NCBI RefSeq assembly: GCF_006345805.1
Contig: NC_043004.1
Span: forward strand, 83,080,001-83,144,000
From: Octopus sinensis
Lineage: Eukaryota
Direction of reading: 5' to 3'
Length of the DNA: 64,000 bases
The notes beneath the pieces are model-generated. The model searched no databases and was not told the DNA's origin. It was given only the letters and a program-made list of their open reading frames with translations. Shown here one piece after another: positions 45,206 through 51,369 of this stretch. Within the stretch, counting starts at the first letter, position 1, and every line of letters begins with the position of its first letter. The position numbers and the translations under genes were made by a program.

Positions 45206-45720
45206 TAAGAAATATTGAATTTCTAAATCTCTCGTAGAGATATGTACGGCGGTGGGGCGATAGAATGGTTGTATACTGTCAATCTAGCAAGAATGTGACA
45301 GTAGGGGGTACACCACCGCTGTATAGCCCTAGGAAGCATCGAACGCCTCCTGATGGCTTTGACACATTTTTCCCTATGTCCTTATATACATTTGCGAAGG
45401 GGAGACAAACACCCCCGGCTGCCGAAGCTGCATCTAGGGACACGTGTTTCAGGATCGTTGGAAGGACAACGATCCTGAAAAACGTTCCCTAGATGCAGTT
45501 CCGGCAGCCGGGGGTGTTTGTCTCCTCTTCGCAAATGTATATAAGGACACAGGGAAAAATGTGTGAAAGCCAGCAGGAGGCGTTCGATGCTTCCTAGGGC
45601 TATACAGCGGTGGTGTACCCCCTACTGTCACATTCTTGTTAGATTGACAGTATACAACCATTCTATCGCCCCACCACCGTACATGTCTCTACGAGAGATT
45701 TAGAAATTCAATATTTCTTA
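45206..45720. repeat. ~255-bp-arm hairpin (inverted plus direct copy of a pLTR/retrozyme-like monomer)
   Basis: Arms 45206-45460 and 45467-45720 with a 6-nt loop GAAGGA. The right arm recurs directly at about 50942-51132. Confidence 0.92.
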
Positions 45721-45909
45721 TTTTGATAATCAGTGAATAGACTTCACTGAATATAGATATATACAATTGCGAAGTCGAGGCAAATATCACCACCCCCCTC
45801 TTTTTTTTGGTTATTGTGGTGTGTTTGTTTCGAGTGCGTCATTGTGAAGAGGTTGTGAGTTCGAGTTCGTTGGAGGACGTTGAAAAGTTTTTGTTGGAGA
45901 TTTTTGAAA

Positions 45910-47253
45910 ATGCAAGAGCAGACTTATGCGAGAGCAGCAGGCAGAGGCCTAGTTGCCAGTGAACAGGAAATGGAAGAAGTGGTGGTCGAACAGAAAACTC
46001 TAGAGAAGTATTTCGACAGTTTAAAGAGGGAGGGTGACTGCGTGAGAGTCACACCGTCCGAGGAGGAAGAAAGCAACACGGAGAAGCGTATGATTACGTA
46101 CAGGACATGGTGTGTGGCGTCGAAAAAAGTTGAAGTAGCAGAAACGGAAGAAGTAGAAAAGTGTCTGAAGGAAATTGAGGGTGAACCCACATTTTACAAA
46201 AGAGGTAGGAAATATGCCACAGTGGTGGTATATTTTAAAACAGAAAATGAAGCAAAAAAGAATGCAACAAGAATTTTGAAAACGGATAAGTGGACTTTAC
46301 TACCAAGTTACTGCGGAAGGAGGGCAGTGAGGATGAGAATTAGCAGAATTTCGCCCGAATTTAATATGGAGAGGTTGTTGGCGGCAGTGGTTTTCAACTG
46401 CAAGGATAGTGTGGAGGTGTTGAAGGTGGAGAAGTCAACAGAGGTTAAGTGGTGGGGATATACGGTGCAGGTTCTGGCACACATAACCGTGCGAGACCTG
46501 TACAACATCCCGGAGGAGTTGGTCTACCCTGATGAGACACGGCTTAGAGTCGTGGTAGAGGGAAGACCCCCAGTCTGCTATAATTGTAAATCAAGGGGCC
46601 ACCTGAAGGATGTGTGCCCGCGGGAAAAAACGAAAGCACCGGAGGCTGTAATAGAGGAGTGTAAAGATACGTGTGTGGAGGAGGGAGAAGTGCAGGAGGA
46701 AACAAAAGAGCAGCTAAATGAGGATACGGAAGAAGAACGAGCAAGTGCAGAGGAGGAAAGAACAGAAGATAGGAAGAGAACAAGGGTGGAATCACCACAG
46801 GAAGTGCAAAAAAAGAAAAAAATCAAAAGCAAGATAACAGAAGAAAAAGAAGAGAGAACACGCAAAGAAAAGGAAGTAAAAGAGAAGGCGAGAGAGCAGC
46901 CAAGGTCAGAGTTTGACCAAGAATGGGAGACAAGAGTGAAAGAGCAGTTGGAAGCGTGTAAAAAGGGAAGAAGGCCTGCAAGAAAAAACCTGAAAGTAGT
47001 TGTGATGTATATCAAGAATACAGAACTGGAAAAGAGACTTGCAGGTAGGAAAGGGTTGGTCAGGGTGAAGTTGAACCCAAAACTGTATGGTGACGATGTA
47101 AAAGGCGCAGTTATAGAAAAAGAAACATTCACAAAATTAAAAAATATATTTAATGCTATTTATATAACGCATTATGTACGGTATGACAATTTACCAAATG
47201 TTATTGACCAAATGGACTTAATAGAATATATGACGGACGAACGTCCAATATAA
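45910..47253 (+). CDS. Tx1/L1-ORF1-like (Gag-like) CCHC zinc-knuckle protein, unit A1, intact 447 aa
   Basis: MQEQTYA start, RRM-like region, RLRVVVEGRPPVCYNCKSRGHLKDVC (CX2CX4HX4C), K/E-rich linker and a C-terminal domain. No RT follows. Confidence 0.85.
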   Translation: MQEQTYARAAGRGLVASEQEMEEVVVEQKTLEKYFDSLKREGDCVRVTPSEEEESNTEKRMITYRTWCVASKKVEVAETEEVEKCLKEIEGEPTFYKRGRKYATVVVYFKTENEAKKNATRILKTDKWTLLPSYCGRRAVRMRISRISPEFNMERLLAAVVFNCKDSVEVLKVEKSTEVKWWGYTVQVLAHITVRDLYNIPEELVYPDETRLRVVVEGRPPVCYNCKSRGHLKDVCPREKTKAPEAVIEECKDTCVEEGEVQEETKEQLNEDTEEERASAEEERTEDRKRTRVESPQEVQKKKKIKSKITEEKEERTRKEKEVKEKAREQPRSEFDQEWETRVKEQLEACKKGRRPARKNLKVVVMYIKNTELEKRLAGRKGLVRVKLNPKLYGDDVKGAVIEKETFTKLKNIFNAIYITHYVRYDNLPNVIDQMDLIEYMTDERPI

Positions 47254-47657
47254 AAGAATTAGAATATATGTAATGTTAAAAAGTAAAATTGTTAATTGTA
47301 AAATTGTAAAATGTAAAATTGTATTTTGAACTGGAATATATGTAATAGTGAAATGTACAATTGTATTTTAAACGGAACTGCGAGTTGGGGGTTCGTAAGC
47401 CGTTCCATCTCATTATATATAATTCATCTTTATTTCATATTTTATTTTTACTTTATGTACCCCACGTCCCGTCTTGTAATGTCCCGTCTGAATTAGGGCC
47501 ATCTTGCCCAGAATAAAGATATAATATCACCAGCCGACCTTTTTTTTTTTGGAGTCGTTATTCTGGTGTGTTGGTTTCGAGTGCGTCATTGCGAAGAGGT
47601 TGTGACTTCGAGTTCGTTGCTGGAGGACGTGGTGGATTTTATTTGGAAATTTTGAAA

Positions 47658-49354: not shown

Positions 49355-50677
49355 ATGCAAGACCAGACGTATGCGAGAGCAGCAGGCAGAGGCCTGGTTG
49401 CGTGTAAACTAGAAATGAAAGAAGTGGTAGTAGAGAAGAAGACTTTAGAAAAATATTTCGACAGTTTGAATAGGGAGGGTGACTGCGTGAGAGTCACACC
49501 GTCCGAAGAAGAGGAAAACAACGCGGAGAAACGTATGATAACATACAGGACATGGTGTGTGGCGTCAAGAAAAATAGAAGTAGCAGAGACGGAAGAAATA
49601 GAGAAATGTCTGCATGGAATTGAGGGTGAACCTACCTTTTTCAACAGAGGAAGGAAATATGCCACAGTGGTGGTACACTTTAAAATCGGAAAGTTGGACT
49701 TTATTACCCAGTTTCTGCGGAAAGAGGGCAGTCACAATAAGAATTAGTAGGATTTCGCCCGAACTTAACATGGAGAGGATATTAGCGGCAGTAGTTTTCA
49801 ACTGCCAGGAAAGTGTGGAGGTGGTGAAGGTGGAAAAGTCAACAGAAGTTAAGTGGTGGGGATATGCGGTACAGGTTCTGGCACATATAACCGTGCCAGA
49901 CCTATACAACATCCCGGAGGAGTTGGTCTTCCCTGATGAGACACGGCTTAGAGTCGTGGTAGAGGGAAGACCCCCAGTCTGTTATAATTGCAAATTAAGA
50001 GGCCACATGAAGGATGTGTGCCCGCTGGAGAAAACGATAGCACCGGAGGCTGTAACGAAGGAGTGGAAAGATACGTGTGTGGAGGAGGGAGAAGTGCAGG
50101 AGGGAACGAAAGCAGTGGAGGCGCAAACGGAGGAGCAGCTAATTGAGGATGTGGAAGAAGAACGTTTAAGTGCAGAGGATGAAAGAACAGAAGATAGGAA
50201 GAGAACAAGGGTGGAATCACCACCGAAAGTTCTAAAAAATAAAAAAATAAAAAGCAAGATAACAGAAGAAAAAGAAGAGAGAACGCGCAAAGAAAAGGAA
50301 GTAAAAGAGAAGGCGAGAGAGCAGACAATGACAGAGGATGACCAAGAATGGGAGCCAAAAGTGAAAGAGCAGTTGGAAGCTTGTAAAAAGGGAAGAAGAC
50401 CTGTAGGAAAAACCTGAAAGCATTCGTGATGTATATCAAAGACACAGAAGTGGAAAAAAGACTTGCAGGTAGGAAAGGATTGATCAGGGTGAAGTTGCAC
50501 CCAAAACTGTATGGTGACAATGTGAAAGGGGTAGTTATAGAAAAAGAGACATTTACAAAATTGAAAAGGATATTTAATGCTGTTTATGTAGCGCAATATG
50601 TTCGTTATGACAATTTGCCAAATGTGATAGAACAGATGGTATTGATAGAGTATATGACGGACGAACGTCCAATATAA
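49355..50677 (+). pseudogene. CCHC ORF1-like, unit A3 (same 41-nt deletion; frameshift near 50410)
   Basis: Paralogue split into ORFs 49340, 49614 and 50426. Confidence 0.85.
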
Positions 50678-50923
50678 AAGAACTTGAATACATGTAATGT
50701 TAAAATGTAAAATTGTAAATTGTAAAATTGTATTTTAAACGAAACTGCGAGTTGGGGGCTCCTAAGCCATTCCATCTAACTCATTACACATAATTCATCT
50801 TCATTTCATATTTTATCTTTTACTTTATGTACCCCACGTCCCGTCTTGTAATGTCCCCTCTGCATTCGGGCCATCGTGCCCATAATAAAGATATAATATC
50901 ACCAGCTGACCGGTGTCTGTTAC

Positions 50924-50968
50924 TCTAGGCCGATGAAGGAAAACGATCCTGAAACACGTGTCCCTAGA
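50924..50968 (+). ncRNA. Minimal type I hammerhead ribozyme (CCGANGA core variant, palindromic stem III)
   Basis: TCTAGG-CCGATGA-AGGA(aaacga)TCCT-GAAAC(acgt)GTC-CCTAGA. Confidence 0.72.
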
Positions 50969-51369
50969 TGCAGTTCCGGCAGTGTTTGTCTCCCCTTCGT
51001 AAACGTATATAAGGACACAGGGAAAAATGTGTTAAAGCCATCAGGAGGCGTTCGATGCTTCCTAGGGCTATACAGCGGTGGTGTCCCCCCTACTGTCACG
51101 TTCTTGTTAGATTGACAGTATACAACTATTCTATATATATATATATATTTACATATATTTATATATATATATATATATATATATATATATTATATATATA
51201 TATATATATATATATATATATACATATATATATATATACATATATATATATACATATATATATATATATACATATATATATATATACATATATATATATA
51301 TACATATATATATATATACATATATATATATATATATATATATATATATATATATATATATATATATAT

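Follow-up and report, generated by a model that had tools for sequence, protein, structure and literature searches.

The 64,000-nucleotide stretch of the Octopus sinensis genome analysed here (NC_043004.1, forward strand, positions 83,080,001 to 83,144,000; hereafter the window) carries three tandem copies of an element that we call U, inserted into a short hammerhead-bearing repeat, M, of the retrozyme type. In the explanation that we consider probable, U is a derivative of a long interspersed nuclear element (LINE) that retains only the first open reading frame (ORF1) and has entered one and the same site of M many times independently, likely through the enzymes of an autonomous LINE, T; this site is the predicted start of a promoter of the small nuclear RNA (snRNA) type, likely borrowed by U. 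The features of the locus are collected in Table 1.

Recurrent insertion of U at a single site of M

At the window locus, a 17-nt duplication (AATATCACCAGCYGACC), not reported in the first-pass annotation of this DNA, is present at 47523, 49217, and 50895. That annotation had proposed that removal of the array restores a head-to-tail repeat of about 360 bp, and both parts of the proposal were borne out: joining 45792 to 50905 recreates the empty junction found at other loci, and the tandem head-to-tail copies of locus L015 give a short, non-coding monomer of 362 nt. The empty site reads GGCA-AATATCACCRGCYGACC-GGTGTC, and in the filled site the 17-mer AATATCACCRGCYGACC is complete after U and complete or partial before it. 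A search for empty monomers and further M-U-M composites returned 222 exact empty and 22 exact filled junctions, with none in reversed controls; thus, the association is not unique to this locus. The insertion point agrees with the earlier placement about 20 nt 5′ of the ribozyme, as the 17-nt duplication stops 18 nt before its core.

A search pattern made from the U 3′ end matched exactly at 65 places (none in the control), 45 of a young and 20 of an older type. Of the young ends, 25 continue into M, 14 belong to copies stacked behind the duplication, and six are solo, so 39/45 lie at the M site or stacked there, with the 17-nt duplication as separator. Nine of the older, U-like ends precede hammerheads of four other retrozyme families, one is stacked, one lies at a U2 gene, and nine were found elsewhere. 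Insertion of U is accompanied by a duplication of 16–18 nt that regenerates the target, and therefore U copies stack. In addition, U transposes independently of M, with its own retrotransposition scars, because solo 5′-truncated copies have target duplications of their own, of 18 bp in each of the two young cases (L283, 40 nt; L130, 480 nt). The older U-like solos L263, L268, and L270 carry duplications of 15–20 bp.

U encodes ORF1 only, and the ratio of nonsynonymous to synonymous substitution rates among six ORF1-only copies (0.05–0.43) indicates purifying selection. Its ORF1 product shows 27% identity over 206 aa (E 3e-25) with that of T, which points to homology with the ORF1 of autonomous elements of the L1 group, but at a distance that does not pinpoint a specific parent. 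A homologue search with the U ORF1 yielded nothing at E ≤ 0.001, and an Atlas search returned zf-CCHC and ZCCHC3-like clusters, which are leads only. Chimeric units, with the 5′ half of T or U joined to the 3′ part of the other family, were observed at L115/L116 (C1:194.607–194.613 Mb) and L298 (C25), and these suggest template switching among ORF1 families.

Independent insertions versus a travelling composite

Two alternatives had been put forward in the first-pass annotation: an ORF1 element that parasitises a ribozyme retroelement, or a unit mobilised by a Penelope-like element (PLE), whose pseudo-long terminal repeats (pLTRs) carry Gag-like cargo and which is released by self-cleavage. 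A tree of M was built from 27 filled and 40 empty copies, the latter picked by us from the first 100 of the 222 listed, its bootstrap values being not fully settled. The filled or empty label changed 19 times on this tree versus 21.2 after shuffling (103 of 500 shuffles were as low), and its well-supported branches force at least six changes. The distances among U copies and among the M copies that hold them were uncorrelated (Mantel test, rho −0.01, p 0.54) over 23 of the 27 junctions, the other four (an N gap, two short or split U copies, and one possible duplicate contig) having been left out. Because filled M copies are scattered among the empty ones and the two sets of distances are uncorrelated, insertion of U into M is a repeated, independent event.

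If, instead, an M-U(n)-M composite had formed once or a few times and then spread as a Penelope-moved unit with ORF1 as cargo, arms starting inside U without upstream M would be explained, as found in L126 and in both arms of L113 (L122 is ambiguous), as would the 0.4% distance between the M parts of L127 and L129. We regard this as very improbable, since filled M copies are unclustered on the tree, U copies 0.3% apart reside in M copies 5% apart, M copies 0.9% apart hold U copies 17% apart, and solo U copies have their own duplications. Moreover, an ORF for reverse transcriptase (RT) and GIY-YIG replaces U at none of the M junctions examined, and the whole 45206-51132 unit, considered as a PLE, contains only zinc-knuckle ORF1 copies between its repeats, with no RT and GIY-YIG ORF. 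The first of the two alternatives was supported and also extended; the second failed as the main route, as U has duplications of its own, exists without M, and shows no co-descent with it. Re-copying of filled repeats by Penelope machinery may have taken place at two or three composite loci, as a minor route at most. A further candidate for a Penelope-type truncation, L033/L006, was rejected, L033 being a full U interrupted by a 1.3-kb insertion.

An autonomous LINE as putative partner of U

At C1:194.61 Mb, an element begins directly after the M duplication and runs into an ORF2 with an endonuclease. T, the family of this element, is a 5.5-kb LINE with an ORF1 of about 500 aa containing a zinc knuckle and an ORF2 with Exo_endo_phos (apurinic/apyrimidinic-type endonuclease, APE), RVT_1, and zf-RVT domains, the 1134 codons of which are open in L206 and L208. 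Its closest solved structure is LINE-1 ORF2p (E 3e-61), and the best named relative of a T protein is from Argonauta hians (64%). We take T to be Tx1-like from its general features rather than from an RT tree with named references.

For the T 5′ ends, 30 of 40 matches were fetched. Besides that at C1:194.61 Mb there were 27, of which 26 follow a motif of the type ATC...CC.GTG and one ends in GACCGGT. Regarding the 3′ ends (n = 30), 22 pass through a 17–18-nt duplication into a hammerhead and one into the same repeat with a deleted hammerhead, five are stacked, one lies at a U2 gene, and one elsewhere. The targets of T are sister retrozymes of M, with inverted arms and (TA)n flanks, in which T sits at the position that U takes in M, and T has a fixed target, a target duplication, and tandem stacking. 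The ends of T and U are alike, with a GTAATGTCCC-like motif, a stem-loop, AATAAAGA, and no poly(A), and T and an older U-like copy occur at common sites, namely retrozyme R2 (L275) and the U2 start. We infer that the endonuclease and RT acting on U come in trans from T or a close relative, through recognition of the common 3′ stem-loop and AATAAA end. Two neighbouring Tx1-like elements, in L118/L119 and L126, were set aside as partners, as they end or start at microsatellites or elsewhere. In L197, L245, and L257, another Tx1-like family is stacked behind T at the same regenerated site.

Position of the insertions behind an snRNA-type promoter motif

In locus L243, T is integrated with a duplication at position +1 of a full U2 gene (identified with Rfam). 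The 5′ end of this copy carries CATCGCTACCTGGTG from retrozyme R2, which suggests that T RNA starts at the R2 site. Upstream of U2 genes, ATCAGT (or ATCATC) was found in 23 of 30 loci at −57 to −61 (two of the seven misses are inserted genes), and upstream of U1 genes a motif of the ATCAGT type was found in all 20 loci at −56 to −59; ATCAGT/ATCATC 56–61 nt before +1 is thus common to several unrelated U1 and U2 promoter types. The vertebrate proximal sequence element lies about 60 bp upstream of +1 (PMC4494074). A reading of the upstream region as a TATA box was dropped when the U1 and U2 promoters showed the motif at −57.

In 12 of 13 retrozyme junctions, the peak of a promoter matrix, built from 11 promoters of our choice, lay 55–60 nt ahead of the point of insertion (−57 at the window locus), and 0–8 of 500 shuffles reached values as high. 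A search for lineage 3′ ends at U1, U2, or R2 starts gave 32 matches versus three in the control: 26 of R2 type, two at U2, one at U1, and three chance-like, two of which were checked and are not element ends. The insertion at the U1 +1 had been predicted from the promoter idea before the search that found it, and consists of a 5′-truncated T relative (88% identical) lying between the U1 promoter and +1, without duplication. In total, three copies of the T/U lineage end exactly at +1 of U1 or U2. The motif is kept in 25/26 left junctions of filled M versus 27/39 empty copies (Fisher p 0.01; one empty copy, cut at a sequence boundary, was excluded), and T copies 99.6–99.9% identical in the endonuclease region occupy R2, R3, and U2.

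An alternative is that independent insertions are directed by local sequence alone, through an AT-C preference of the endonuclease, base pairing between the nicked target and the tail of a read-through RNA, or both. The link with promoters would then have arisen secondarily by selection, since copies could reproduce only when they lie behind one. The U1 and U2 starts each resemble the R2 target at 9/12 nt, off-target U copies start with ATAT as the M target does, and an off-target T has an R2-like 3′ junction, TTTCATCGC; in other LINEs, co-transcribed target sequence sharpens targeting (PMC4494074). We nevertheless judge both parts of this alternative unlikely. M and U2 match at only 5/12 nt and old M and U2 at 3/12, yet U-like copies are found in both old M and U2; the 5′-truncated T relative at the U1 +1 cannot owe its presence to amplification from that locus; and the upstream motif is over-represented in filled M copies.

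Several observations weigh against our preferred explanation of promoter-linked insertion with T as partner. Insertions without a promoter are common (6/45 young and 9/20 older U-like ends), the motif has only 6–7 nt and is also the arm of a hairpin, the retrozyme families share a common descent, and in family R6 the motif is present just as a variant. Plain sequence recognition could explain part of the pattern, given the 9/12 matches of the U1 and U2 starts to R2, and the enrichment test does not distinguish the motif from the rest of the upstream sequence. As for the partner, the M site yielded no 3′ end of an autonomous element, all 22 exact junctions being of U type; the lone T 5′ end at this site sits in a chimeric array; and the ORF1 products of U and T are only 27% identical, with 3′ untranslated regions alike in short motifs only.

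As a separate observation, dispersed U2 genes with near-identical promoters and 3′ flanks were found on several chromosomes (L343–L345, L358, L362, L364, L365, and L372), as if U2 and its promoter travelled in a mobile unit.

The host repeat M as a probable Penelope-moved retrozyme

The hammerhead-bearing end, used as query against the 2.72-Gb genome, gave 2610 first-look candidates, 40 of which were scored and 30 loci fetched; these were mostly empty head-to-tail junctions. The monomer has a predicted compact circular fold (z −6.3 versus 100 shuffles). M copies are embedded in (TA)n, 5′-truncated, and frequently arranged as head-to-head arms, and 47 of 74 arm 3′ ends (49 loci) fall at exactly two positions, 55 nt apart, with 5′ ends scattered. 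The window copy had been described as preceded by an inverted copy and bounded by (TA)n, and so it is: 45206-45460 pairs with 45461-45721 at about 96%, and the (TA)n tracts at 45065-45207 and 51132-51373 adjoin both outer ends. Truncated arms in inverted orientation, insertion into microsatellites, and a pair of internal sites at which RT starts have been described for PLEs (PMC8557442, PMC11167929). Because the inverted 5′-truncated arm, the microsatellite target, and the two fixed 3′ ends of M match these descriptions, M would behave like a non-LTR (long terminal repeat) retrozyme moved by a PLE.

U and M are both covered by contigs from four runs, and the X2 and X10 records bridge the U-M junction; these contigs show no ends, and their RNA status is a guess. 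A Penelope-type RT fragment lies at the left edge of the window (223-1854, minus strand; L426), in which no M-like 3′ end was seen by eye, no genome-wide search for the donor having been made; its C-terminal GIY-YIG part is found just beyond that edge.

The hammerhead and its possible role

The hammerhead assigned at 50924-50968 was recovered, with the core CCGATGA at 50930-50936 and the GUC ending at 50962; both left M arms are without the ribozyme core. Its palindromic stem III holds for this locus (C-ACGT-G) but not as a general feature of M, as CACGTG was present in only 21/67 copies and CACGGTG in 32/67; the CCGATGA (U4C) core was present in 60/67 and is fixed in M (three spurious regular-expression rows were dropped from these counts). 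An Rfam scan of the window gave no hammerhead among the matches listed (150 of 152), and its miRNA matches were rejected as microsatellite-driven and below threshold. Folded by itself, the 66-mer did not outperform shuffled sequences (z −0.02). In an alignment of eight copies from six retrozyme families, 12 of 16 hammerhead pairs showed compensatory changes and 89.8% of the cells were paired, a value reached by 0/500 shuffles, although this control is inflated by kinship among the sequences and a misaligned row, R6, lowers the pair counts. A retrozyme family with core UUGAUAA carries U-like stacks (L277, L278, and L280); U3-A8 covariation, as in this core, has been described (PMC4209133).

The hammerhead could work for the guests by cutting the read-through transcript about 65 nt past U or T, and upstream too in tandem M, so as to release an RNA of unit length whose 3′ tail is defined and matches the target. 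The fold is conserved and covaries across families, the DNA copies of U and T lack poly(A), and a U4C core may suffice in vivo (PMC3088659). In addition, in L194/L195 (C20, two copies 227 kb apart), a retrozyme-T arm stops exactly at the GUC cut site and starts 0–3 nt from the upstream one, and is thus bounded by both predicted cut sites, which would also agree with the release by self-cleavage proposed in the first-pass annotation. Even so, we find both this role and its proposed product rather doubtful, as U, T, and V (a second ORF1-only family, below) have a conserved AATAAA 10 nt from their ends that would terminate the RNA before the ribozyme, solo copies lack a ribozyme tail, and the 5′ ends of M arms do not accumulate at the cut site (only 3/74 close to it, versus 1.8 expected). 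Furthermore, U4C lowers activity in vitro (PMC3088659), and a Penelope element did without hammerhead cleavage in vitro (PMC11167929). The hammerhead is a feature of the host repeat and probably dispensable for U. A Penelope copy running from the M 3′ end back into U would need uncut or circular RNA. The L194/L195 arm is itself joined without microhomology to a U-like 5′ part.

Proposed mechanism

In the sequence of events that we favour, M would be copied into (TA)n by a PLE, and U inserts with a duplication of 16–18 nt that regenerates the target and gives rise to stacks. T or a close relative would act in trans, recognising the common 3′ stem-loop and AATAAA end, with targeting anchored on the promoter (bound SNAPc or an open start site) and helped by a weak AT sequence preference. 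The new copy would be transcribed from the promoter at its insertion site, the hammerhead of the host repeat being probably unneeded by U, and the filled repeat might occasionally be re-copied by Penelope machinery.

Comparison with known systems

Targeting of other transposons, of U2, or of microsatellites by Tx1 families has already been published, as have non-autonomous partners with a common target (PMC4494074, PMC4640811, PMC8869645). A close likeness is with the Tx1-clade LINEs that insert in transposons, such as Xenopus Tx1 in Tx1D or crocodilian Tx1-Mar and SINEU in Mariner-N4_AMi, in which an APE-RT LINE and a non-autonomous partner have a common target inside a repeat, with target duplications, tandem stacks, and proposed transcription from the flank (PMC4494074). 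Unlike these, the targets found here are a hammerhead retrozyme and the U1/U2 +1, united by their position behind a promoter motif and not by one sequence, and the non-autonomous partner encodes ORF1. Keno and Utopia insert within the U2 coding sequence. Insertion in U2 genes is a likeness to both, and Keno belongs to the Tx1 clade with an APE endonuclease (PMC4640811), whereas here U1 and U2 are rare secondary targets hit at +1 and retrozymes are the main ones. The half-L1 HAL1 is likewise a non-autonomous LINE derivative with ORF1p only (PMC5753468). U works like HAL1 without membership, as HAL1 proper derives from mammalian L1; U differs in its non-mammalian host, site specificity, stacked arrays, and absence of a poly(A) tail in DNA.

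Regarding the host repeat, M resembles the metazoan non-LTR retrozymes and PLE pLTRs in its non-coding monomer of about 360 nt, its type I hammerhead with a weak stem III, its tandem and inverted 5′-truncated copies, its microsatellite targets, and its two internal 3′ ends (PMC7229834, PMC4209133, PMC8557442, PMC11167929, bioRxiv 10.64898/2026.07.22.740005). M and its sisters, known here from DNA sequence alone, differ in that the U4C and C3U core variants are fixed per family and that about 9% of the M junctions hold a LINE derivative. Newt satellite 2 is also a hammerhead repeat, with an internal snRNA-type RNA polymerase II promoter (PMC2220036), whereas the promoter here is a sequence-based prediction; no LINE targeting of this satellite turned up in our literature search.

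Organization of the locus and neighbouring sequences

Table 1. Coordinates of the retrozyme M, the U array, and their flanks in the window
Feature	Position	Strand	Remarks
Left (TA)n target of retrozyme insertion	45065-45207	none	
Inverted 5′-truncated arm of M	45206-45460	-	Second fixed 3′ end at its outer boundary, 233 nt past the cut site; ribozyme core missing
Forward arm of M	45461-45782	+	Begins within the hammerhead, with loss of the core and a mutated stem III
Predicted proximal sequence element of snRNA type, ATCAGTG	45729-45735	+	57 nt 5′ of the A of ATCACC (45786, predicted +1); doubles as the 5′ strand of a short hairpin stem
Left remnant (9 nt) of target-site duplication	45783-45791	+	
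U copy 1, ORF1-only LINE derivative	45792-47522	+	AATAAA at 47512, 3′ stem-loop, no poly(A)
Intact 447-aa ORF with zinc knuckle, U copy 1	45910-47253	+	
Target duplication (17 nt), U copy 1/copy 2 boundary	47523-47539	+	
U copy 2	47540-49216	+	Deletion of ~40 nt frameshifts ORF1; 88% identity to copy 1
Target duplication (17 nt), U copy 2/copy 3 boundary	49217-49233	+	
U copy 3	49234-50894	+	Deletion in common with copy 2; 95% overall identity to copy 2, mosaic (83-100% by window)
Right target duplication (17 nt), return to original M sequence	50895-50911	+	
Downstream part of M	50912-51132	+	Ends at the first fixed 3′ end (in the reference monomer, 178 nt past the cut site)
Hammerhead motif of minimal type I with the U4C core variant	50924-50968	+	Predicted cut after 50962
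Right (TA)n target	51132-51373	none	

Beyond the array, the second ORF1-only family, V, forms two tandem units at 53390-56990 (minus strand) of the window. Its ORF1 is 37% identical to that of U, and its duplication of about 12 nt (ACATAGAGGAAA) lies inside an apparent decayed older ORF1; V differs from U in having another target and no motif at −57. A MITE-like element (miniature inverted-repeat transposable element) of about 300 bp with long terminal inverted repeats is located between (TA)n arrays at 44753-45050, and ordinary CR1-like LINE fragments at 3469-5102, 35053-37572, 42594-43838, and 60298-62044. Finally, related-looking hydrophobic ORFs of 330–380 aa, with no Pfam match, are present at 7070-8194 and 31720-32700 (both minus strand) of the window and at 5342-6473 of L426, and these possibly constitute a tandem family of membrane receptors.

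Significance

In the literature searched, which did not include Repbase as a possible home of such families, we found no report of LINE insertion directed to retrozymes, to pLTRs, or to start sites of the snRNA type, and the locus is a real, recurrent, and novel variation on target-specific LINE biology. Tentatively, and with somewhat less than even confidence, we propose a broader reading, in which an octopod LINE lineage would recognise snRNA-type promoter complexes rather than DNA sequence, landing at +1 of every promoter of this kind, including those of U1, U2, and thousands of Penelope-spread retrozymes, and thereby capturing the promoter. The retrozyme would then be a self-renewing, harmless landing pad, and the hammerhead perhaps a switch, with cut RNA entering the LINE route and uncut or circular RNA the Penelope route. 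If true, this would constitute a four-tier chain of parasites, composed of PLE, retrozyme, LINE, and ORF1-only LINE.

Target-specific LINEs are thought to read DNA sequence through their endonuclease; here, near-identical enzymes are found in diverged sequences whose common feature is that an snRNA promoter motif precedes them. Transcription factors tether the Ty elements of yeast and the TRE elements of Dictyostelium, and a promoter-anchored insertion would be the non-LTR counterpart of this tethering at a different class of promoter. For mollusc retrozymes, the transcription of which is, to our knowledge, unexplained, the locus also suggests where a promoter and its start site may lie, and it presents the non-autonomous element of one retroelement class as a niche for another class.

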